Source: a virus
Virus record (IMG/VR): IMGVR_UViG_3300017767_005578
Location: 9-64,008 of that record
Direction: 5' to 3' (one strand)
DNA: 64,000 nt
Shown here: positions 3,249 to 63,100 of the stretch, piece by piece
Layout: every line of letters begins with the position of its first letter
Position numbering within the stretch: position 1 is the stretch's first letter
Program-made: the position numbers and the translations under genes
Notes under the pieces: generated by a model
Told to the model about the DNA's origin: nothing
What the model saw: the letters and a program-made list of their open reading frames with translations, nothing else
Databases searched by the model: none

Positions 3249-3944
3249 TCATATATGGTCTTTATAAAAATCCTTATCTCTAATGATTCTACTTACAATG
3301 TTGTAGCCTAATACTAGGTCGATTGATAACTTCCTCTTAGAGCGTGTCTGGTGCAACATAATAACCTTCCTAACCTTATCCAAATCCTTTTCAACAGGGA
3401 TAAGCTTTTTACCTCTTTTTTTAAATCCAAAAGGTGCTTTTCTGCTGTAGACTTCTAAGTTCTTTTTTTTGTTTTGAAGAATTGTAGACGTTCTCTCAGA
3501 GATAATACCTCTCTCCATTTCGTTAAGAGATAGCATTAATGATATGAAGAACTTTCCTGTTGCTGTATTGGTATCTATTGATTCACCATTTAAGTCTAGG
3601 ATTGACATTCCTATTCCTTCTTTATTAAGTGTGTCAATAAAAGTAAGACCGTCTATTACTTTTCTGGATATACGATCAAGCTTCCATGATACAACGTGGT
3701 TTATCTCTTTGTTGTCGATTCTTTCCTTAAGGATAGAACCTCCTGGTCTTTTGAATATTTTAGAACCTCCTGAGATGTCTTCGTCAATAATTATATCAAC
3801 TACCTCATAATCTTTTTCTTTGCAGAACAGGACACATTTATCCTTCTGCATCTCTAATGAGTTATCTTGTTTGTTTGTAGATACTCTAATGTAAATAATT
3901 GCTTGGGTTTTCATAATGACTAATTTAATTATTTGTAATGACAA
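3249..3944 (-). CDS. serine recombinase (resolvase/invertase catalytic domain plus short C-terminal extension)
   Basis: IYIRVSTNKQ (catalytic Ser), SLEMQ, DEDISGG, KLDRISR, E..IISERT, APFGF; likely start Met11. Confidence 0.9.
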   Translation of the reverse strand: MSLQIIKLVIMKTQAIIYIRVSTNKQDNSLEMQKDKCVLFCKEKDYEVVDIIIDEDISGGSKIFKRPGGSILKERIDNKEINHVVSWKLDRISRKVIDGLTFIDTLNKEGIGMSILDLNGESIDTNTATGKFFISLMLSLNEMERGIISERTSTILQNKKKNLEVYSRKAPFGFKKRGKKLIPVEKDLDKVRKVIMLHQTRSKRKLSIDLVLGYNIVSRIIRDKDFYKDHI

Positions 3945-9419: not shown

Positions 9420-9686
9420 TTAAAGTTCTAATAATTCTGATTCCACTTCCTCCAGATTCCACTTTTCAATTAGCTTGTTTAATCGCTTTTCAAAAGAATT
9501 AAATGTTTTAGAAGTATGAACCATTTCACCATTAAATTCAATGCTAAATCCATTTGCCCATGAATGATTTTGCCTTTGAATTAATGTTGCCATTCTAATA
9601 TCATCATCCCCTGTAATTGCTTGAAAATTTTCATTAGATAATGTTATTACAAATCCCTTTTTTAATCTTGTTTTTAAATTTTCCAT
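9420..9686 (-). CDS. early hypothetical protein (true start likely MENLK; the track's MCD start comes from the repeat motif)
   Basis: A-rich leader aaaacaaacaatc-ATG. Confidence 0.6.
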   Translation of the reverse strand: MENLKTRLKKGFVITLSNENFQAITGDDDIRMATLIQRQNHSWANGFSIEFNGEMVHTSKTFNSFEKRLNKLIEKWNLEEVESELLEL

Positions 9687-9716
9687 GATTGTTTGTTTTT
9701 TAATGTCACACATTTA

Positions 9717-10259: not shown

Positions 10260-10723
10260 GATTGTTGTTTTTTAATTGTTTGAATTATATCTCGTTCCAT
10301 TATTTTTAAAACATCATCTACTGTTTTAACTCTAGAGCCATGTAGTTCAAGATAATAGTCTCCAGTGTATGTTGTGTATTTACTGTCTTTAAAATCTCTG
10401 TTATTTTCAGGTATTATTTTAAGATTATAAACATTACCATTAATAACAGCTTCAGCTTTGCTACCCATACACTCGTTTGAGTATTTAATAAACAGGCAAG
10501 GCTCTTTAAATCCGAATATATGTGCAACATTTAATTCTCTGTTTATGCTTTCCACAAAGTCACAAAGAATTTTATTGTAGATTTTTGTTGACTTTTTGTT
10601 GATAGCTTCGGTTATATTAATTTGATTCTGTTCATCATTAGCTGTGTTGATAAAGCTATTTATTAATGAATTTTCTTCTGCGTGGACACTTTCCACTTCT
10701 ACTGTAAAGTTGTAAGTTTTCAT
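10256..10723 (-). CDS. early hypothetical protein (N-terminus similar to that of 9717-10259)
   Basis: ORF track; A-rich leader. Confidence 0.6.
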   Translation of the reverse strand: MKTYNFTVEVESVHAEENSLINSFINTANDEQNQINITEAINKKSTKIYNKILCDFVESINRELNVAHIFGFKEPCLFIKYSNECMGSKAEAVINGNVYNLKIIPENNRDFKDSKYTTYTGDYYLELHGSRVKTVDDVLKIMERDIIQTIKKQQS

Positions 10724-10742
10724 GATTGATTGATTTTAATTG

Positions 10743-11039
10743 TTATCTACTTTTTATGTTGTCAATTTTTGATGTACCAGAGTTGATCATATCAAAAACT
10801 TTATTCCAGTTACTGTCATCAGCTTCCCATTCGATGTCATCTATATCAAATTCTATTTGAAAGTTTCTATAGGAATCTCTATGAGAGTTAAGTTTAAAAT
10901 CACCGTCATCATTTTTCTTGAGGGTAATTTTATGTCTGTTATCACACATACAAGATATAAGGTTAATAACTACTTCTCTTGCATTTTCTTTTACCTCCAG
11001 CTTCGGAGGGTTGTTTAGTAATTCTGTGTATTTGTCCAT
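10743..11039 (-). CDS. early hypothetical protein
   Basis: ORF track; motif and A-rich leader upstream. Confidence 0.6.
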   Translation of the reverse strand: MDKYTELLNNPPKLEVKENAREVVINLISCMCDNRHKITLKKNDDGDFKLNSHRDSYRNFQIEFDIDDIEWEADDSNWNKVFDMINSGTSKIDNIKSR

Positions 11040-11065
11040 GATTGTTTGTTTTTAAGGTCACACAT

Positions 11066-11674
11066 TTAGTAATATTGTTCTCCATCTTCTGTAAATTCAT
11101 ACTCATTAGCTATAATACTCTCCTCTATAGCTTCTCTAGAAGTATAGTACTCGTATCCTTGTTCTAGTGAATCGTATATCTTGTTACATATATCTTCGTA
11201 GTGTTCTCTTATTTCATATAAGATGTCTTCGCAGATGTCTTCTATATTGGAATAGTTTTTATATTGCCAATCGTTAGTAAATTCAGTTTCTAAGTTATCT
11301 GAATAACTTTTTGAATGGTAGTAATGTCCACTTTGTTTGAAGCTACCGTATATGTTTATATCACCGTTTTTAATTAGCTTGATAACTCTGGACCAATTTT
11401 TTTGATATTGCTGGTTGTTATATCCTGGAGTTATGAAGTTTAGTATATCTTCGTTTGGTGATCCTTCAAACATAGCACCGTCACCTTGTGACCAGAATCC
11501 TCTGAAATATATTTTATCAATATCGAATCCTGTTTCATCTTCCTTGTACATTTCGTATACGTGTTCCCACCAATCATAATGTGTATTAATGTCGTGAAAT
11601 TTTTCAATTACTTTTTCTTGTGCTTCTTCACTAAGTTCCTTGAACTTGTAAATTTCAATTGTTTCTTTTCTCAT
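11066..11674 (-). CDS. conserved phage/MGE hypothetical protein (YKFKELSEEAQEK...DWWE...FWSQGDGA family)
   Basis: Family motif recognised; function not established. Confidence 0.6.
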   Translation of the reverse strand: MRKETIEIYKFKELSEEAQEKVIEKFHDINTHYDWWEHVYEMYKEDETGFDIDKIYFRGFWSQGDGAMFEGSPNEDILNFITPGYNNQQYQKNWSRVIKLIKNGDINIYGSFKQSGHYYHSKSYSDNLETEFTNDWQYKNYSNIEDICEDILYEIREHYEDICNKIYDSLEQGYEYYTSREAIEESIIANEYEFTEDGEQYY

Positions 11675-11754
11675 GATATTTATATTTTATCCTCATTAGA
11701 TTAAGTGTGTAACCTTGAGCGAGGATATTACTCAAGGTCACACATTTATTATTA
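11672..11754 (-). promoter_or_regulatory. structured intergenic leader, copy 1 (14-bp hairpin plus possible pseudoknot)
   Basis: TGTGTGACCTTGAG-11nt-CTCAAGGTTACACA; loop ATCCTC is complementary to downstream GAGGAT. Confidence 0.6.
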
Positions 11755-12723
11755 AGCCCAACCCAACTTAGTAGCTAGATTAAGCATTTCACTGTATTCT
11801 ATCTTATGGCATCCTACTACCATATCTCCTGAACTATGTATAAGGTCAACACTATATACACCTATCTCAAAAGTTACACCGTTACGCTTCCATTGTTGTC
11901 CCGTTTCAACAACGTGTTGAACTAGCTTCCAAAGTTTCTTAGCGTTATCCATAGGTACTTCTGCTCTCCTACTGGTTTCAATGGTTTCACTGTCTTTTAC
12001 TCTTAACAAGTACCCTGCTACGTATGGACAGTAGCTTGTTTCGTGGTTTCTCCACTTCTCAATACCTTCTTTTGCTTCAGCTAATTCCCTAGCTTTTTTA
12101 CGCTTTTCAGCTTCTATAGCTTTACGCTTATTTTCTTTTATCTTTTTTATAGCATCTTCAGATAAAAGTATTTCTAAGGGATTGTCAGAATATATTAATT
12201 CTTTTTCTGACTTTTTGAGTTTAGATTTTAGCTTGAATATATTGGTTAAGTTAACAGCGTGTTCTATATGAGAATTTATTTCTCTAGTATAGTCATATTT
12301 TCTAGCTCTTAACTGTTTTTTAGCTAGTTCTTCAACGCTTTTAATGTGTTCACGTACATTGTTAACAAATGTTTCTTTTTCTTTAGAATAATCATTGTCT
12401 CTATGCGTGTAGCCGTAGGGCATTTTATTAACATTTATACGTGTATAGTGACTAGGAATAGCATAACTAACGGCATTCTGTTGTTTTGCTGTTGTGTTAC
12501 TATAAGAGTGATCATACCAAAGGACCAAAGTTCCGTAATCTTTGTTTTTGTGTTCTTCTGGTGTTACTATTCTAGCAATTTCAAAGTGACTACCGTATGA
12601 GTAGATACTTTTATTGTTAAAATAGAAGCTGTTTCCGCTGTTTCTAGCGTGTTCTTGTGATTGATGCGCCCAAAGGTGAGCGATTTCATCTTTGCTTGAA
12701 AATACTTGTTTTATTCGTGCCAT
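11752..12723 (-). CDS. conserved early phage protein (YSYGSHF / YSNTTAKQQ family)
   Basis: Family motifs recognised; function unknown. Confidence 0.6.
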   Translation of the reverse strand: MARIKQVFSSKDEIAHLWAHQSQEHARNSGNSFYFNNKSIYSYGSHFEIARIVTPEEHKNKDYGTLVLWYDHSYSNTTAKQQNAVSYAIPSHYTRINVNKMPYGYTHRDNDYSKEKETFVNNVREHIKSVEELAKKQLRARKYDYTREINSHIEHAVNLTNIFKLKSKLKKSEKELIYSDNPLEILLSEDAIKKIKENKRKAIEAEKRKKARELAEAKEGIEKWRNHETSYCPYVAGYLLRVKDSETIETSRRAEVPMDNAKKLWKLVQHVVETGQQWKRNGVTFEIGVYSVDLIHSSGDMVVGCHKIEYSEMLNLATKLGWA

Positions 12724-12803
12724 AACTTTTATATTTTATCCTCTTAATTTTTTGTGTGTAACCTTAAGTGAGGATGTTACTCAAGGTTGCACATTTATTA
12801 TTA
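12721..12803 (-). promoter_or_regulatory. structured intergenic leader, copy 2
   Basis: TGTGCAACCTTGAG-11nt-CTTAAGGTTACACA, same loop/GAGGAT arrangement as copy 1. Confidence 0.6.
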
Positions 12804-13166
12804 GTAAATTGTTTTAAGATAGTTTCTTAGTTCTCTCATTTCCCATGTAGCATCTTGACCAGCACAATAAGATATTCTAGCATTGCTTTTATTATACTTA
12901 GATAAGAAGAATCTACCCAAAGCCCAATGCTGAGGAGATCTAAACAGTAAACACCGTTCTATTATTTCTTTTGTTCTATGTATACCACCTATTTGCTGTG
13001 TTAACATATCACAAAGCTGTCTTTTAAATTCGTCTGTTAATTGAACTTTGGACCATCCTGTTGTCTTTAGATACATCCTACCGTTTAATAATTCTTGTGC
13101 AGATGTTTGTGAACCTGCTACTTTCCATGCTTTTTCTAAACTGTCAATTTTTGTAATTCGTCCCAT
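12801..13166 (-). CDS. early hypothetical protein
   Basis: ORF track. Confidence 0.6.
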   Translation of the reverse strand: MGRITKIDSLEKAWKVAGSQTSAQELLNGRMYLKTTGWSKVQLTDEFKRQLCDMLTQQIGGIHRTKEIIERCLLFRSPQHWALGRFFLSKYNKSNARISYCAGQDATWEMRELRNYLKTIY

Positions 13167-13228
13167 TGTAATAGAGTTTTATATTATTGGCTCACTTTAT
13201 AGGCTGAGCTAATTACCTTTTTACTAAG

Positions 13229-13441
13229 TTAGTGATTTTCTTTTGTACTGACAATCTTAAATTCACTAAAGTTTGTTTTTATTATTAAATCTGTTCTTTT
13301 TTCTTCTATCCATTTTTGAAACCATGATTGTAGAAATTTAGGTGCAGGTTGCATGTCGCTACCTTGTTCAATATAGAATGTATCGTTTACTTTGTAAATC
13401 GGATTGTTTCTAAGATCTTTGTATACTTCAAAATTTTTCAT
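13229..13441 (-). CDS. early hypothetical protein
   Basis: ORF track. Confidence 0.55.
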   Translation of the reverse strand: MKNFEVYKDLRNNPIYKVNDTFYIEQGSDMQPAPKFLQSWFQKWIEEKRTDLIIKTNFSEFKIVSTKENH

Positions 13442-13448
13442 AATTGAT

Positions 13449-13682
13449 TTAGTTTATTTCTATTATTTCTAATATGTTGTGATCTGTTTCGTGGTCATAT
13501 TCCATTGGGTGAATCTCACTTTCAAAAAATTCATCTTCGTTTGGTGTTCCTAGTTCGCCCATTGTAATTTCGTCACCTGTTTTTACTTTTTTTGCTTCTG
13601 GGTATTTTTTTTCGTCAACATCTACAGAAAAGAATGTTTTGTAGTTTGTTGCGTCCCTGTATCTAAATTCTATTGTTTTCAT
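13449..13682 (-). CDS. early hypothetical protein (true start likely MKTIEF)
   Basis: ORF track; YRDATNYK motif; upstream MCN start comes from the repeat motif. Confidence 0.55.
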   Translation of the reverse strand: MKTIEFRYRDATNYKTFFSVDVDEKKYPEAKKVKTGDEITMGELGTPNEDEFFESEIHPMEYDHETDHNILEIIEIN

Positions 13683-13698
13683 GTTTTCAAATTTAAGG

Positions 13699-13962
13699 TT
13701 ACACATTTACTCTAATTACCATATTAAGAGGTATGTCATATCCATCAGGATCAATAACGGGCTCAGATTCCTTGTATCCTTCTTCATCAGGCTCTGAGTC
13801 TTCGTCTATTACATATTCAATTTCTAGCCATTCACTAATTATTGGGTTATCGCTTCCGTAGCTATCTTTTACTCTTGCCATTGTTCCGCAATCGCTTAAT
13901 TGAATTTCGTATCCTCCCCAATTCGACACTGTGTAGTGTCCATGTGTTATAAAGTCTTCCAT
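13699..13962 (-). CDS. early hypothetical acidic protein (SNWGGYEI family)
   Basis: ORF track. Confidence 0.55.
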   Translation of the reverse strand: MEDFITHGHYTVSNWGGYEIQLSDCGTMARVKDSYGSDNPIISEWLEIEYVIDEDSEPDEEGYKESEPVIDPDGYDIPLNMVIRVNV

Positions 13963-14780: not shown

Positions 14781-15488
14781 TTTGTTTGTTTTATTTTGTG
14801 CGACATTGCACATTTATAATAGAAACCCTCTAAAGATTTGAACTTTACTAAAGACACAATATAAAATTTGTCTAAGGGTTTTAGCTTTTTTATTTATCAC
14901 CGCTTGCAAGCTGTTAAACAATACGATTGCAATTTTTAGTTGATTGCTAACTATATAAAGGCAAGGTGACACATTTAATATATGCCACCTTGCAAGTATA
15001 CCATATAAGAATACAGTATATAACATGTAGATCTTTTTTATCTTACATTTATTGATTCATTTGTTTACACTTTCGGTTTGTTCCGAACTGTTTTTTTAAA
15101 CTGTAGTAACTGAAGACTACGTGTAAAAATTCAATTTAGCTTTTTACTTGCTAGTTGTAAATAGGCTTTTTTATCGCATAGCAACTAAACTATGAGTTTA
15201 CAACATAGGTTATATTTCAAACCGCCTTAATACTAGGTTTTTTAATTGCGCTACTAATTAAAAAACTTTTTTTAATATCAATACTTCAAAGAAAATTCAA
15301 ATCCGTTTAAAAGTGTTAACACGTCAATTCAACACTACCCAATTAAGGGCTAATTATCCCGCTATAATTTAAACGCTTTAAAATGAACGAATAATATAGT
15401 TTTAGTTTAAAAGCCCCTTTGCTACGTCAAAGCACTATATTTTAAAAGGGGTACACGTTTTTAAAAGGAACGTGCAAACCGTTATTAA

Positions 15489-15887
15489 TTAGCCTAGTTT
15501 CTCGTTTAACGTCTCAAAATCTTGAGTAGTAAATTGTTTTATTTGGTATCTCGATGCCTCAATACAGATTGAAACGTTATTTTTGAAACGTGTTCTACCT
15601 TTTTTGTTCCATTGCAATTTGCATTTTTGTTGTAATTGCGTGAAGGCTAGGCCAGTATTTAATATTGTTTCGTGTTCGTTTTCGTCGTTAACGTTTTCAA
15701 CACGTACTAAAACAGGTAAAGAGAAATTAAACAATTTTGCATTTGAGTTTTTAAAAAAACTTAACATTTCATAGAAATTGCCTACTAAAGTGTTAACGTT
15801 TGTTTCGTCCGTTAATTCATAGGTTAAATTATTCGTTAAATCAACCGTTTGATTTTTGTCTAATTGGTAAAAAGTTACTTTTTTCAT
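15489..15887 (-). CDS. hypothetical protein, first gene of the leftward early block
   Basis: ORF track. Confidence 0.55.
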   Translation of the reverse strand: MKKVTFYQLDKNQTVDLTNNLTYELTDETNVNTLVGNFYEMLSFFKNSNAKLFNFSLPVLVRVENVNDENEHETILNTGLAFTQLQQKCKLQWNKKGRTRFKNNVSICIEASRYQIKQFTTQDFETLNEKLG

Positions 15888-16430
15888 TTTAATAAAGTTT
15901 AAATTGTGGTTAACCTTAAAACGGTGTTAACCTTAACCGTCTGAGACAAAGTACGTTTAAATTATTCGTTAAATCAAATTTTAAGACTAAAAAAATTAAA
16001 CTTTTTTTTCAATTATCTTGTAACTCATTGATTATCAACTAAATAAATTTTATTAATAGTATTGTACAACACCAGGAAAATTAAAAAAAAAGGGCCTCAA
16101 GGTGACACAATTACAAAAAAGAAACAATAAGAATAATACTACTATAATAGAGAAGACATACAGGAACTATGAAAAAAAATTGTGTGTATTTAGTTTTGAT
16201 CTCTCAAGGTGGGGAAATAAAAAAAAGTATCTGATGTATTAAACAAACGATTTAAACAGATACAAAATTTTTTAAAACTATATACGCTTTGAATTTTTCC
16301 CCAAACAGAAACAAAAACAAAGTTTTCTCAACCGTTCGATAGGGTAAACACAAGGTATTGAACGGCAAATAGTTAAGGCCATAAGACTAAAAACAAAAAC
16401 AGTTAATTGTGACGGGAGGAAACGAAAAAC

Positions 16431-44500: not shown

Positions 44501-47500
44501 AAGACTCTGCTCCAGTTGGTGCAAAAATAAATAAAGTTTTTGAAGTTAGAGTTGATAAAAACAATCCCAATAAAGCAGCTGCTACTGTAGAATTTATATC
44601 AGAAGATGGAAAAATTTTTAGAGGTGAAGTAAAGTTAAAGCAAACACAACAAGCTACAACTGATACAACTACTGAAGAGGTTGTTGAGGAAGGTGACACA
44701 TTTACTCAAGAAGAATTAGACCAAGAGATAACCAAAGATAACTTACAATCAACAATAGATAAAATAGACTCTTTACAGAAAAAGATAAGAAGTACTACAA
44801 AATCTGATCTAGGTTTTTCTGCTGCTTTGGATGCTGTTCTTACTCTTACAAAAGCAGCTTTAAAAACAACTAAAACTTTTAGAGATGCTTACAATATTGC
44901 TGTCTCTAAATTTAGAGACCAAGACGGTTATAAAAAACTAACTGATGAGCAAAAAAACAAATTAGATTCTTTTTCTGAAAAAGAATTTAAAGACGCTTTA
45001 AAAGAAGAGTCAGAGAAAGCAGTTGAGCGAGGTGGCACATTTAATAAAGCAAAAGAAGCGTATAAGAAGGCTGGGGAATCAGGTTTAGATACAAAAGAAT
45101 CAATTTCAGAATCTTTTAAAACAGTAGAAAGAGCAGACTGGTATAAGTCTTTAAGCAAAGAAGACCAACAAGAAATAAAGGCAGACTATGTAAATAGGCT
45201 TGTTCCGAACTTTGAATCAGAGGGTAAGCCTCCTAAAAAGAACAGAAAAGGAATACCTAAGCTTGATGAGTCTAAAAAGATTATAACCACCGAAAAGCAA
45301 CAGTTAAAAAAGAGATTAATAGAGCAGAGAAAAGGTGCTAACAACTTAAGAAAATCACAACAAAAAATGATTGATGATTTGTTTGAGTCTATAGAAACCA
45401 ATTCAAAAAGCTTAACGAAAGCACAGCTAAAAGCAGCCTTAAAAAGAGCAGCAAAAGCAGACCCTGCTAAGATTAATGATTTCTTAGAATTAAGAGATAG
45501 CATAAACAAACAACTAAAAAAAGGAGAGCTAAAAGAAAAGAAAGCTGAGGCAAAAAGAATACAGTCAAGATTAAAAAGAAAAGCTAAAAAAACTACAGGT
45601 TTTAGAAAGTCTTTAGCGTTGGATTTATCCAGGTTAAACATAAACAGAGTAGATGACATAGACGCTTTCCTAGATGCTGCTAATGGACTTATTAAGTCTT
45701 TAGATGGTAAGGCTAGTATGAAAGATGTTAAAGATCAAACACAAGACATAATAGCTAAAGCATTAGATGCAGAAACTAAGTTTAGAGAAAAAAAACAAGA
45801 ACTTATTGAAGAAGCTTTAAAAGAAGAGTATGATGCAGCAAACCTTAGCATGTCTTTTGAAGAGTATAGAAAATTAAAAGAAGAGCAATCTAAACAGGAT
45901 GCCAAAGATAAAAAGTTAGAAGCAGCAGCCGAAGCTAGAGAGGATATGGTTAATTGGCTTAACTCTAGAATTGATAAGTTAAGAACTGATTTTAATGACC
46001 TAACAGACGGAATGACTGAGAGGCAAAAGGCAATCGTAAAAGATTTAATTAATGCTAAAAATCTTCTTAATAAAAAAGACGGTAAGGGAGAATACTTGTT
46101 ATTGGATAGTGAGTCTTTAATGGATTTGCATTCTGCAATAGATGAGGTTTTCACTTTTAATTCAACAGCAGGTGTTAATAAAATTGCAACAGCTTTAAAG
46201 TCAATTAAAAAAGCAGAAACATTTAGGATTAAGCTAAACAATATGATTGATGCTGGATTATTTACTAAAGGAATATTTGGTAAAAACACAGGTAACTTAT
46301 CAGCTTATGCTAAAGCAGCTACAATATCAGAAAGGGCTGCTAAAGATTTTGCATCTATTCTTTTTGGAGAATATAACAAAAGCTGGAATAAAACTCAAGA
46401 AGAAACAGAAGCATTCCTAAAAAGAAGAGCAAAAAAAAGAGATGAGCTAAAGATAAAAGAAAGACAGTCTAATAAAATTGGCGTTATATCTTGGTTAACA
46501 CAAGAAGATGAAGGATTGACTGTCGAGGAGTCTAACAAAAACTTAAAAGAGAAAATTGAATCTTTAAAGAATCAGATAAAAAAATTAAAAGAAGTTGGTA
46601 GAACAAAAGGTAAGAGTTATAGGATAACTAAAAGAGCAGAAACAAGAAAGGCTGAATTATTAGAAAAAATAGTAAAAGACTTAAATTTAGATAGTATAGA
46701 AACTAAGGTAGACCCTGTAACAGGAGAAAGTAATTTAGAAAATCTTTTAACACCTAACGAAAAGGAGTTTTTAAACTTTTTAAAAGACGAATTTGAGCAG
46801 TTGAAAGAGCCTTTAGCAGAATCTTATCTAAACGCTAAGGGGGAAGAAATTACTTTTGTAAAAAACTACCTACCTACTTTTGCTAAAAAATTAGGTGCAA
46901 AATCTGATGTAGAACTTGATAGTGATTTTTCATCTACAGGTATGTCGGCAGATCCTTCTGGTAGAACTATTCAAAGAACAGAAGTAGATACAACAGGAAA
47001 CACTTCTTATAATTTTGATGTGTTAGGAACTACAGAAGCTGGTTATGGTCAAATATCAAATGACATTAATTCGCTTTTTGAAAAACAAGTTTTAATTAAT
47101 GTTGTTAAATCTAAGCCTGTAAAAAAACTATATATACAAGAAGGTCAAGATCTAGCTGACCAGTATAATGTTTTACAAGAAAGGGTTAAAACATTAATTA
47201 ATAAGAGAAACCCCAACTTCGCAAGAGATATTGGTCTTGCTAACGAGTATTATAGATTTGCTGAAAATGCTGTTAGAAACACTATTGCTCTACCTCTAAG
47301 GAATACTTTTCAGTTAGCTAAACAGTTAGCTCCTATTGTTTTAAATACCGCAATAAAGAACCCTGTATTTTTTGCTCAAGGGTTTACTTTAACAACTCTT
47401 TCAATGGGGAAAAACAGACAGTTTGTTGATGCTTTGTTAAAAAAAGCGTCAAATACATCTTTAAGGGTTTTGGAAGGAGACGAGAGTTTAGCAAAAACAA

Positions 47501-55708: not shown

Positions 55709-56181
55709 AGAAGTTTACTGGATTTTTAAAGAAAGCTAAGGGGTTTTTAGCCACTAAAGGTAAAGATGTAGGTCAGTTAGCTATTAATGCTGCTACAGGT
55801 AACTTTAAGGGTGTTATAAAAGAGATTGGAGATGTATTAGGAACTGACTTATCAGAAGAAGGTAAAGCTTTATCAGAAGAGTTCCAGTTAAAGATAAAAG
55901 AGTTTGAGGTAGAGCATGATAGATTAATGATGGAAGATAGGAAGTCTGCTAGAGATATGCAGAAAGAATCTTTAAAACAAGGTGGAAAGCTTTCTAAAAA
56001 TTTTATTTATTATTTAGCTGCTTTTTGGAGTGTTGTTGGAGCTACCTTCATGATATTTTCTTTCTTCATAGTTGTTCCAGAGGGTAACACACACTTAGTA
56101 GATACTTTAGAAGGGTTTATACTTGGTAATATAGTGGCTTCTATTATAGCGTTCTTTTACGGAGGGATGAACAAGAATTAA
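55705..56181 (+). CDS. holin
   Basis: DRKSARDMQ motif followed by two TM helices ending FFYGG. Confidence 0.65.
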   Translation: MKKFTGFLKKAKGFLATKGKDVGQLAINAATGNFKGVIKEIGDVLGTDLSEEGKALSEEFQLKIKEFEVEHDRLMMEDRKSARDMQKESLKQGGKLSKNFIYYLAAFWSVVGATFMIFSFFIVVPEGNTHLVDTLEGFILGNIVASIIAFFYGGMNKN

Positions 56182-56495
56182 TCGTCACCAAATAATTTAC
56201 AGTAAAGCAAGTAGTTATGTTCTCTGACTATTTGCTTTTTTGTTTTGGACCAAGTAAAGTTTCTTTTAGTTTCTAGATCTCCTGTTTCCCATTCCATGTG
56301 GTGTTCTGCACATAGAAGTTCTATGTTGTCTTTGTTTAACCTAAGCTCAGGTGTTCTTCCTTTGGTTAGTATATGAGAAAAGAATATTGGTTGAGGTTTG
56401 TTTCCTAGCTTTTTACCACAGTTAGCACATACATGTTTTCGTTCTTTCCATATCTCCATAAACATTTCCCATTCTCCTGTTTTTTTTCTACTCAT
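56178..56495 (-). CDS. HNH/NinG-like endonuclease
   Basis: CANC...SHIL.KG..PELRLNKDNIELLCAEHH. Confidence 0.75.
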   Translation of the reverse strand: MSRKKTGEWEMFMEIWKERKHVCANCGKKLGNKPQPIFFSHILTKGRTPELRLNKDNIELLCAEHHMEWETGDLETKRNFTWSKTKKQIVREHNYLLYCKLFGDD

Positions 56496-56709: not shown

Positions 56710-56734
56710 AAAAAAAAGAGGGTTTTACCCCTCC
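56710..56734 (-). terminator. intrinsic terminator
   Basis: GAGGG/CCCTC stem followed by T-run on the minus strand. Confidence 0.5.
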
Positions 56735-57870
56735 TTATAATTTTTAATGTTCACTCTAAAAGTAGCTCTTTTTCCTTCAGGGCGTTTATTAAGTATTCTA
56801 CCATTGTCTCCAAAAGAGATAACCTCATCATACTTAGAGAAAGCCATAATCTTTTGCTTTAGCTTGTCCTTGGTTTTTTCAAGCAAAGCTATATCATCTG
56901 TACAAGTTTTATACTGTACAGCTATATCCCATTCTTCCTCTTCTCCTTTTCTAGATGTGTCTTCGTAAGATACTTTATACTTGTCTTTATAAAACTCTAA
57001 ATAAGCTTCGTTTCCTGACGGCTCTGGTTCTATGTCTGTTATTTGCCTATCTATCTCCAGCTCATCACCTTCAGAGTTGTATATGTCTCTAGCCATAGTC
57101 ACACGATTCCAGAACTCATAAGACTTTACGATAATCTCTTGACATAATTCTAGGTCCATGTCTAAAGGCAATACATTAAAGTCCACACCTGCTACTAGGT
57201 ATGCAAGTTCAGAGTATGTAATACCTAACACTATCATTTGAAGGTTTGTTTGAACTACGTACCTGTGTGGTATTCCTAGTTCATACTTCTCTGCTGCGAA
57301 CTGAGAAACCATCTTTATTTCTAGAGAAGCGTCTGACTCGATTACCTCACCTGTAAAGGGTGAAACCTGTCCTCCTGGGATAAAGAAGTCTAAGGAAGCT
57401 GATAAATGCGGATAGTTGATGTTTACAGCGTAACAAGGGATAGGAACTTTAGTTCTAATCTTTTTAGCTTGCGTCCAGTTATCTACCCAACCTGTTTCAG
57501 TTCCATCGTAGAACTCCCATAGGTCTGATATTTTCTCCTCAAAGTGCAAACCGTTTACAGTAAACTTTGTTGCAAAGGGAGGTATGTCGTAATCTATCTT
57601 ACTTCTGAAAAGTTTTACAGAATCACCATACTCATCCATTTCTATAATTGTAGCTATCTCTGATGATCCTATTGTATTTTTTCTAAACGAATACCAATCT
57701 TCATTTCTTTTACCTTCAATAAACTGAGGGATAAAAAAACCGTATACATCTTCTTTTATTTGTTTAGCGTACTTAGCGTATTCTCCTAAGTGTGCGATTT
57801 CCTCTGGTAGGTTACACCCAAGATTATCTAATGATAAATCTATTTTATTCATTTCCAATGTTGTTGACAT
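56725..57870 (-). CDS. YqaJ-like (lambda-Exo family) exonuclease
   Basis: WYSFRKNTIGSSEIATI, G..FE, LSASLD, LEIK, YVVQTNLQM. Confidence 0.85.
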   Translation of the reverse strand: MSTTLEMNKIDLSLDNLGCNLPEEIAHLGEYAKYAKQIKEDVYGFFIPQFIEGKRNEDWYSFRKNTIGSSEIATIIEMDEYGDSVKLFRSKIDYDIPPFATKFTVNGLHFEEKISDLWEFYDGTETGWVDNWTQAKKIRTKVPIPCYAVNINYPHLSASLDFFIPGGQVSPFTGEVIESDASLEIKMVSQFAAEKYELGIPHRYVVQTNLQMIVLGITYSELAYLVAGVDFNVLPLDMDLELCQEIIVKSYEFWNRVTMARDIYNSEGDELEIDRQITDIEPEPSGNEAYLEFYKDKYKVSYEDTSRKGEEEEWDIAVQYKTCTDDIALLEKTKDKLKQKIMAFSKYDEVISFGDNGRILNKRPEGKRATFRVNIKNYKEG

Positions 57871-62263: not shown

Positions 62264-62387
62264 AAGTCTTCTTGATTGATTTTCGTATTAATTTAGCAAC
62301 AGATACCTTCTTTTGTTTTGCTAGTTCTTTTAGCTTAACAATTACGTCACCCTCTACCCTTATCTGGAACTTTCTATCTTTATTCAT
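62253..62387 (-). CDS. ribbon-helix-helix (CopG-like) protein, 44 aa, absent from ORF track
   Basis: KFQIRV strand, KLKELAKQKKVSVAKLIRKSI helices; ATGA coupling with upstream gene. Confidence 0.65.
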   Translation of the reverse strand: MNKDRKFQIRVEGDVIVKLKELAKQKKVSVAKLIRKSIKKTYDL

Positions 62388-62770
62388 TTTGTTTTTGGAT
62401 TAGCTTTACTTTTTAATTTCTTAGCTTGTTCTTTTGTTACTTTCAAAACCTCACCAGATATTAAGTCTTTAATAAAGTACTTAAGATCTATAAGTTGTTC
62501 AATATTAATATCAGCCATATCCTTAAATATCTCTTCGTATATTTTCTGAATATCCTGAACAAGCTTAACTTCTTTTTCGTTTTTGTGCATAGCACGTTCT
62601 ACGGGGAGTGTTTTCTTTTCAAGTTCTGAAAGAAATTTATTCCCATAATATTTTAATTCTTTAGACCATATTGGGGTTTCTTTAAGGTCTTCAATGTTTT
62701 CCAACATTATAATAGCGTTGGACATAAAAGAGGTGCATAGCCTCTTGTGTTTATTAATAGCTGCTTCCAT
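62384..62770 (-). CDS. hypothetical helical protein
   Basis: ORF track. Confidence 0.55.
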   Translation of the reverse strand: MEAAINKHKRLCTSFMSNAIIMLENIEDLKETPIWSKELKYYGNKFLSELEKKTLPVERAMHKNEKEVKLVQDIQKIYEEIFKDMADINIEQLIDLKYFIKDLISGEVLKVTKEQAKKLKSKANPKTK

Positions 62771-62921
62771 ATTTGTTCATGTTTCCAAGATTGGGTTTAC
62801 TTATTTTTTTTATCATAAATGTGTCACATTTAGGACACTTAACTTTTGTTTTATAAGACTGTACTAGCTTGTCTTTAACTTCGGTTTTGCAATTTTCGCA
62901 AATGTAATCGAATATAGGCAT
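62754..62921 (-). CDS. FmdB-like zinc-ribbon protein (55 aa), absent from ORF track
   Basis: MPIFDYICENC...VKCPKC pattern. Confidence 0.65.
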   Translation of the reverse strand: MPIFDYICENCKTEVKDKLVQSYKTKVKCPKCDTFMIKKISKPNLGNMNKYGSSY

Positions 62922-63100
62922 ACTTAATTGTTTGTTGCTTGATACGTATATATTATTTCAATAGTGACATCTTTATTGCACTTTTCGCATATAAATTTTG
63001 AATCCTCTACGTACCAGTCTGAGTCACAGCATTCTGTTTTAATTTGTTTTAAAGCTTTTTCTGCGTCCACTATACTAAATATTAAATTCTGTTAGTTTTT

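Follow-up and report, generated by a model that had tools for sequence, protein, structure and literature searches.

A conserved leader cassette, and candidate structured RNA, at early-gene junctions of uncultured marine phages

In the early region of a virus genome from the IMG/VR collection (record IMGVR_UViG_3300017767_005578), two neighboring genes are each preceded by a hairpin-bearing leader of about 80 nucleotides (nt), which raises the question of whether such leaders act as regulatory RNAs, as DNA signals, as recombination sites or as punctuation between genes. The window analyzed here is a stretch of 64,000 nt with a GC content of about 32%; it represents nearly the entire 64,031-nt virus record, which is classed as a provirus with a completeness estimate of 92%. 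An earlier note on this DNA had described two leader copies with a stem, a loop containing ATCCTC and a GAGGAT 14 nt before the ATG, and we confirm this layout with exact coordinates and find the element on 16 other contigs. Both copies are members of a conserved, phage-specific leader cassette of about 83 nt that belongs to a clade of uncultured marine phages. As the best explanation, tentatively, we propose a regulatory linker resembling the promoter-early stem-loop (PeSL) cassettes of T4-type phages and at the same time a candidate structured RNA leader, for which we infer action at the RNA level, a pseudoknot and a regulatory role.

Anatomy and recurrence of the leader cassette

The two copies, A and B, are 83 nt long each and 83% identical, with the minus strand as their sense strand. 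Each fills the gap from the stop codon of one gene to the ATG of the next (lengths of gene products in amino acids, aa; bit scores from covariance model R1):

12721-12803, minus strand: whole cassette, copy A, reaching from the stop codon of the 121-aa gene up to the start ATG of the 323-aa gene; 86 bits
12779-12793, minus strand: 5' arm of copy A, TGTGCAACCTTGAGT, overlapping the junction motif at 12783-12797
12770-12778, minus strand: loop of copy A, AACATCCTC, holding ATCCTC
12755-12769, minus strand: 3' arm of copy A, ACTTAAGGTTACACA
12738-12743, minus strand: GAGGAT box of copy A, 14 nt ahead of the ATG at 12723
11672-11754, minus strand: whole cassette, copy B, reaching from the stop codon of the 323-aa gene up to the start ATG of the 202-aa gene; 100.5 bits
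11730-11744, minus strand: 5' arm of copy B, TGTGTGACCTTGAGT, overlapping the junction motif at 11734-11748
11721-11729, minus strand: loop of copy B, AATATCCTC, holding ATCCTC
11706-11720, minus strand: 3' arm of copy B, GCTCAAGGTTACACA
11689-11694, minus strand: GAGGAT box of copy B, 14 nt ahead of the ATG at 11674

Five parts make up the cassette: the junction motif TAAATGTGTRACCTT after the upstream stop, an inverted copy of this motif, a variable spacer of 9-11 nt, an invariant GAGGA(T), and a variable A/U-rich stretch of 14-16 nt to the AUG. In both elements of the window the motif is followed by GAG, the loop, the inverted motif copy, the spacer, the GAGGAT box and the A/T-rich leader. 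The stem of each copy has 14 base pairs (bp), or 15 bp with a closing U.R pair, around a loop of 9-11 nt. In copy B all 14 pairs are Watson-Crick or G.U, with one internal G.U and a closing U.G, and the stem of copy A contains a C.A mismatch and a single G.U pair. Shuffles of the window put the expected number of such hairpin patterns at 0.00, and sense-strand RNA folds reach -28 kcal/mol (z -4.2) and -15.2 kcal/mol (z -2.5).

Relatives, recovered by pattern scans and a protein-guided scan, place the element on 17 contigs, namely the window, three other IMG/VR contigs and 13 marine metagenome contigs from Tara Oceans and other surveys, with 24 distinct element sequences in total. In the fetched loci, 34 copies score 79-106 bits with model R1 on the sense strand, against a maximum of 34 bits at these sites on the antisense strand. 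Genes of at least seven unrelated families follow the element, which is always co-oriented with the downstream gene. Remoter homologues of the flanked genes carry other leaders (202-aa gene at 35-40% identity, 323-aa gene at 43-54%). No Rfam family was matched at the gathering score anywhere in the window, and a search of 11600-12900 with E up to 10 gave four weak matches, none of them credible. Furthermore, nothing useful came from blastn of 10700-13500 against 50,697 phage records or from an IMG/VR search for relatives with the 323-aa protein, and a literature search for the motif gave 27 hits, all of them unrelated primers. The speculation that the element is a protein sponge mimicking ToxI is rejected, as there is no tandem array but one or two copies per genome, about 1 kb or more apart, and no Rfam match.

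The genes surrounding the two copies are the following:

12801-13166, minus strand: 121-aa gene, family F7, in most related loci directly followed by the first hairpin leader
11752-12723, minus strand: 323-aa gene, phrog_7247, the sole gene between both copies in the window
11066-11674, minus strand: 202-aa gene, phrog_5162, preceded by the hairpin leader in ten out of ten loci with a complete gene

Searches of Pfam, PHROGs, PDB sequences and the ESM Atlas returned no function for any of the three proteins. Contigs of three marine RNA-seq libraries from two studies (X20, X22 and X23; two of the three libraries oligo-dT) match parts of the 323-aa gene within 11822-12476 at 95-100% identity and a depth of 2-3. 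These matches are compatible with expression of the 323-aa gene, although they do not prove transcription and provide no transcript ends.

The junction motif and the probable exchange of gene modules

What the earlier note had missed is that the 5' arm is a generic junction motif, which is not exclusive to the element, follows the stop codon at many early-gene junctions and is also found at junctions without a hairpin. The window contains eight copies of TAAATGTGTRACCTT, compared to 0.02 expected. Six out of the eight are located on the sense strand in non-coding gaps of the early region (9702, 11054, 11734, 12783, 13695 and 14963), the first five at gene stop codons and the last in a long non-coding stretch (14813-15489), and a further copy at 44690-44704 is antisense within a coding region. 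At most junctions the motif is directly followed by a plain A-rich leader and the ATG, and dozens of motif junctions occur in the related contigs. The hairpin-less copies near the cassettes are:

9702-9716, minus strand: motif followed by a plain leader
11054-11068, minus strand: third motif copy, at the stop of the 202-aa gene, followed by a plain A-rich leader and the ATG of a 98-aa gene
13695-13709, minus strand: motif

Because the motif mostly precedes plain leaders, the hairpin leader is best described as one of several alternative leader modules placed on a common junction signal. The open reading frame (ORF) at 9420-9713 (minus strand) opens with the ATG of the junction motif, and translation probably begins at the second ATG (9686), after a plain A-rich leader. 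A mini-ORF in the 5' arm, encoding MC(D/N)(L/P)(E/K) followed by a stop, was considered and discarded, since its residues vary, ACG replaces ATG in one copy and the same ATG is out of frame at plain junctions.

The earlier note had likewise overlooked that the element, in the comparison of related contigs, is a mosaic boundary. The window and a 62-kb relative (L006) share blocks of 90-98% identity, and the similarity ends at the motif or at the element, while two further contigs (L008 and L009) agree fully downstream of TAATAAATG and are unrelated ahead of it. The copies flank a hypervariable gene block in which gene order and junction types are shuffled: between the two hairpin leaders lies the 323-aa gene alone in the window and a block of three to five genes elsewhere, and contigs from another sample carry alternative junction types at 11054 and 11734. 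Whereas the window reads 121-aa gene, hairpin, 323-aa gene, hairpin, 202-aa gene, the order in contig L064 is hairpin, 202-aa gene, hairpin, 323-aa gene, plain junction, which is the reverse. The element is probably a seam of gene swapping, and since variable positions are reshuffled between copies, the exchange would be homologous and dispersed rather than site-specific, a pattern known from PeSLs of T4-type phages (PMC2839356, PMC4122927). The window also encodes a small serine recombinase of the integrase/invertase type (3249-3944), a RecE-like exonuclease (56725-57870) and an HNH endonuclease (56178-56495), all on the minus strand, and the RecE-like exonuclease could be a source of homologous exchange at short linkers.

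Further arrangements were observed around the motif and its variants. At 14961-14993 (minus strand) the motif forms the 3' arm of a hairpin with an upstream inverted copy (14 pairs, 5-nt loop), followed by CTTTATATAG; this hairpin was flagged as terminator-like, is located within the non-coding stretch of about 680 nt at 14813-15489, and recurs with the same layout in L006, L055 and L064. Another leader module, AAAATCCTAGAAATAGGT, occurs after the motif or the stop about 10 nt ahead of the ATG (L058:3855, L059:1196, L067:2251, L074:1221-1499) and can fold into a CCUA-GAAA-UAGG tetraloop hairpin. A motif variant forms the short palindrome TGTGCAATGTYGCACA at 14797-14860 (minus strand) of the window and at L006:10993, L055:7607 and L064:8653. 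Upstream of it the sequence resembles a tRNA T-arm and acceptor 3' strand (GTTCAAATC.../GGTTCGATCC...), and this region could represent an attP-like copy of the 3' end of a host tRNA; an actual tRNA beside the motif at about 14813 was considered for its T-arm look and dismissed, as ARAGORN finds no tRNA there. Close to the first leftward gene, whose ATG is at 15887, two direct repeats of TTAAGGTTAAC stand upstream at 15903-15940 (minus strand); they are similar to the 3' arm AAGGTTACACA and could be bound by a regulator. In the region 62760-62925 (minus strand), a perfect 17-nt palindrome, TAAATGTGTCACATTTA, lies within the coding sequence of a zinc-ribbon protein (CxxC...CPKC) with an ATG near 62921, and therefore the ORF at 62384-62770 probably begins about 150 nt farther upstream. 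A palindromic motif copy at 62816-62830 was rejected as an operator because it sits in the CPKC-coding part of this zinc-ribbon ORF. Finally, a more distant phage group (L070:2340-4125), which carries a 54%-identical homologue of the 323-aa protein, has its own TAATGTGAGNCCCC-like junction motif and its own recurring leader GTTTCCACTCATCA, and lineage-specific junction signals may be a general habit of these phages.

RNA fold, DNA signal or punctuation

The probable host bears on how the leader can work. The large terminase matches only phages of Flavobacterium, Cellulophaga, Tenacibaculum and Maribacter, at about 31% identity, and the hosts of this phage clade are probably Flavobacteriia. None of the 54 genes of the window has a Shine-Dalgarno (SD)-like motif at -15 to -4, the usual leaders being AAAAACAAACAATC ahead of the ATG, and the phage encodes no S21 gene. 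These SD-less leaders, together with the terminase relatives, fit a Bacteroidota host, a phylum in which mRNAs lack SD sequences and the promoter -7 box reads TAHHTTTG (PMC6847099). The hairpin pattern and the motif with plain leader each had zero matches in 185,579 bacterial and archaeal genomes. Within the window, GAGGA occurs near a start codon only in the two elements, at -20.

Evidence for an RNA structure was taken from an alignment of 23 sequences (A2). The stem is 95% paired across this alignment, with seven invariant pairs and three that vary among standard pairs only (16/44: GU 15, AU 6, GC 2; 22/38: GC 13, GU 8, AU 2; 25/35: UA 12, UG 11). The G-U wobbles that the earlier note had described on the sense strand are borne out, most of the stem variation being compatible with wobble pairing there; read on the opposite strand, these states would become C.A mismatches, which is a modest argument for a sense-strand RNA. 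In addition, of 16 distinct hairpins, 11 are more stable in the sense than in the antisense orientation (mean -18.0 versus -15.9 kcal/mol). Downstream of the hairpin, conservation is limited to one block, A.GAGGA(T), the exact complement of the conserved loop, embedded between at least five spacer alleles (9-11 nt) and at least six leader alleles; these alleles recombine freely and diverge much more than synonymous sites do. By a rough estimate, the chance that the conserved block is itself the loop complement is about 6/4096 (a fixed 6-mer against the six 6-mers of an 11-nt loop). Complementarity between loop and box is present in every copy, yet of the 6-8 bp originally claimed, 8 bp are reached only in relatives, the window copies having 6 bp (copy A) and 7 bp (copy B). 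A loop/box duplex of 6-8 bp is calculated at -7.7 to -11.6 kcal/mol, and in crude A-form geometry the spacer of 9-11 nt can span the 15-bp stem, for which 37-50 Å are needed. The interleaved order of arm, loop, second arm and box (a-b-a'-b') is the topology of a pseudoknot and does not originate from a simple palindrome, and the variable spacer length would be poorly tolerated by a rigid protein dimer on DNA. An H-type pseudoknot formed by the loop and GAGGAU is therefore plausible as a model.

Under the reading we favor, the cassette would act in the sense transcript, in which the hairpin forms and base pairing of its AUCCUC loop with GAGGAU creates an H-type pseudoknot ending about 15 nt ahead of the start codon. 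The A/U-rich initiation region would be left free, and the folded block could either tune the translation or stability of the first gene of the variable module or be bound by a trans-acting factor, like the operator pseudoknot of T4 gene 32; no masking of an SD site would be involved. As a conserved sequence, the cassette would also serve as a homology patch, doubling as a site of module exchange between co-infecting relatives in the manner of PeSLs.

Several observations weigh against this reading. The claim of a pseudoknot leader stands insofar as the sense-strand leader is conserved and its fold plausible, but the search for covariation revealed none for either helix: five stem pairs are broken in some copies, among them a mid-stem U.U in eight and C.A in five, and the covariation score was matched or exceeded by 53 of 500 shuffles, so that it has no statistical support. 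The ATCCTC/GAGGAT helix is invariant except for GAGGAC in one lineage, which breaks the terminal pair, and C28 is always opposite A67, leaving an extension of the helix uncompensated. In random trials, a 6-nt loop complement occurs by chance within 31 nt downstream in 5-7% of cases. Moreover, the clade is shallow, with a fourfold-site divergence in the 202-aa gene of about 9-10% and no copies of intermediate divergence among the relatives, which makes the missing covariation uninformative rather than negative. The hairpin divergence of about 9% is no lower than neutral, so the constancy of the sequence may partly reflect recency or recombination, and some mosaic junctions could be assembly chimeras of short-read metagenomes at the repeat. 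Finally, TAAATGTG in the junction motif matches five of the six near-invariant positions of the Bacteroidetes -7 box (PMC6847099), and if this box is active, the transcript would begin within the 5' arm and keep no more than about 7 bp of the stem.

This last match opens a DNA-level explanation, in which the junction motif is a host-type -7 promoter box (TAAATGTG versus TAHHTTTG), the inverted repeat is its operator or a cruciform, and the RNA fold is incidental. Were transcripts to start inside the 5' arm, the full inverted repeat would indeed more likely be a DNA operator, and the explanation gains from the excess of motif copies over expectation, from their position about 29 nt ahead of many ATGs followed by a short A-rich leader, from the hairpin at 14961-14993 with the same motif and an upstream inverted copy, and from the conservation of the hairpin as sequence, with its invariant pairs and fixed loop. 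We nevertheless consider it unlikely, though deserving of serious attention, because G replaces T at -7, no consistent -33 element lies upstream of the motif, the wobble bias favors one strand, the spacing differs among the three inverted-repeat contexts, the distance from half-site to GAGGAT varies by 2 nt, and the look-ups in Pfam, PHROGs, PDB and the ESM Atlas found no candidate binding protein. Plain punctuation of the PeSL type, with the hairpin as an intercistronic terminator or attenuator or as a stabilizer of the 3' end of the upstream message and the match of GAGGAT to the loop irrelevant to folding, seems improbable to us. The hairpin does begin at the upstream stop codon, a run of four to five T follows within 2 nt of the stem in 12 of 23 copies, and the elements bracket a hypervariable block as PeSLs do (PMC2839356), but the other spacer alleles, including both window copies, have no T-run, the base of the stem is A/U-rich, and the invariant GAGGA box with its exact loop match is left unexplained.

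The earlier suggestion that loop pairing hides an SD-like GAGGAU and thereby gates ribosome binding is very doubtful. No SD-like motif other than the conserved GAGGA lies upstream of any of the 54 genes, and CCUC in the loop resembles an anti-SD; however, no other gene of the window uses an SD, the relatives infect Flavobacteriia, whose mRNAs lack it (PMC6847099), GAGG, at 16-17 nt from the AUG, is well beyond the usual distance of 7-9 nt, the start region itself is unpaired, and an S21 is missing from the phage. Only a slight chance can be given to the variant that AUCCUC/GAGGAU is a true switch in a phylum whose ribosomes normally hide the anti-SD, so that an opened pseudoknot would expose the SD to SD-competent ribosomes, for instance those lacking bS21; if so, the expression of the variable early genes would be tied to the state of the host ribosome. 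Hardly more credible is a folded recombination site similar to integron attC, whose cassettes would be moved by a host enzyme: the arms are loosely like RYYYAAC/GTTRRRY with one mismatch each and the cassette order is permuted, but most junctions carry only half a motif and no hairpin, most copies have neither extrahelical bases nor a central unpaired spacer, the exchange points are spread over arm, spacer, box and leader without a single fixed crossover, and both hairpin and motif-plus-leader are absent from the 185,579 genomes.

Comparison with known systems

Like the leader hairpins and thermometers that sequester an SD in SD-using bacteria, the cassette has a purine box, GAGGA, complementary to an upstream pyrimidine stretch in the same leader, but its host group does not use SD sequences, its box is too far from the AUG and the region of its start codon is unpaired. 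A conserved pair of SD-like and anti-SD-like sequences in an SD-less system is an oddity and the distinctive feature of this element. With the attC/CALIN arrays of integrons in phages (PMC9892861) it shares an imperfect palindrome between cassette-like genes and a permuted gene order; here, however, the sequence is conserved and not only the structure, extrahelical bases are lacking, half-sites stand at most junctions, crossovers are dispersed, and the element is absent from bacterial genomes. The operator of T4 gene 32 (PMC535899) likewise consists of a compact 5' fold followed by an unstructured A/U-rich start region and belongs to an early or middle phage gene. In contrast to it, the present cassette has a 15-bp stem and an unstructured stretch of 14-16 nt, its pseudoknot is predicted only and no binding protein is known, and since the element precedes at least seven unrelated gene families, it cannot be an autogenous operator.

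If the fold is real, the cassette would add a structured leader RNA to those known, and one carried by phages of Bacteroidota, a phylum that initiates translation without SD pairing and in which, to our knowledge, very few cis-regulatory RNAs have been described.

The closest resemblance in overall organization is to the PeSL cassettes, which are linkers of T4-type phages (PMC2839356, PMC4122927). They differ in that no promoter of the sigma-70 or Bacteroidetes type is recognizable downstream of the stem-loop here: no TAnnTTTG box occurs between stem and ATG, and sigma-70-like matches reach only 9/12 and promoter-like sequences in this region are no more numerous than in shuffles, the sigma-70 consensus not being the promoter type used by Bacteroidetes. 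A promoter-like box, if any, is inside the 5' arm. Furthermore, the phage lineage and host phylum are others, each genome has one or two copies here versus dozens, and the conserved complementarity of loop and box is lacking in PeSLs. In both systems, the space between one gene's stop codon and the next gene's ATG is taken up by a conserved element of 70-100 nt that contains a stable stem-loop and flanks accessory genes in a hypervariable region, and the breakpoints of insertions, replacements and permutations between related phages fall in this element. If our reading is correct, a regulatory block doubles as the exchange seam for the accessory early genes of marine phages, and the PeSL principle would extend beyond T4-type phages.

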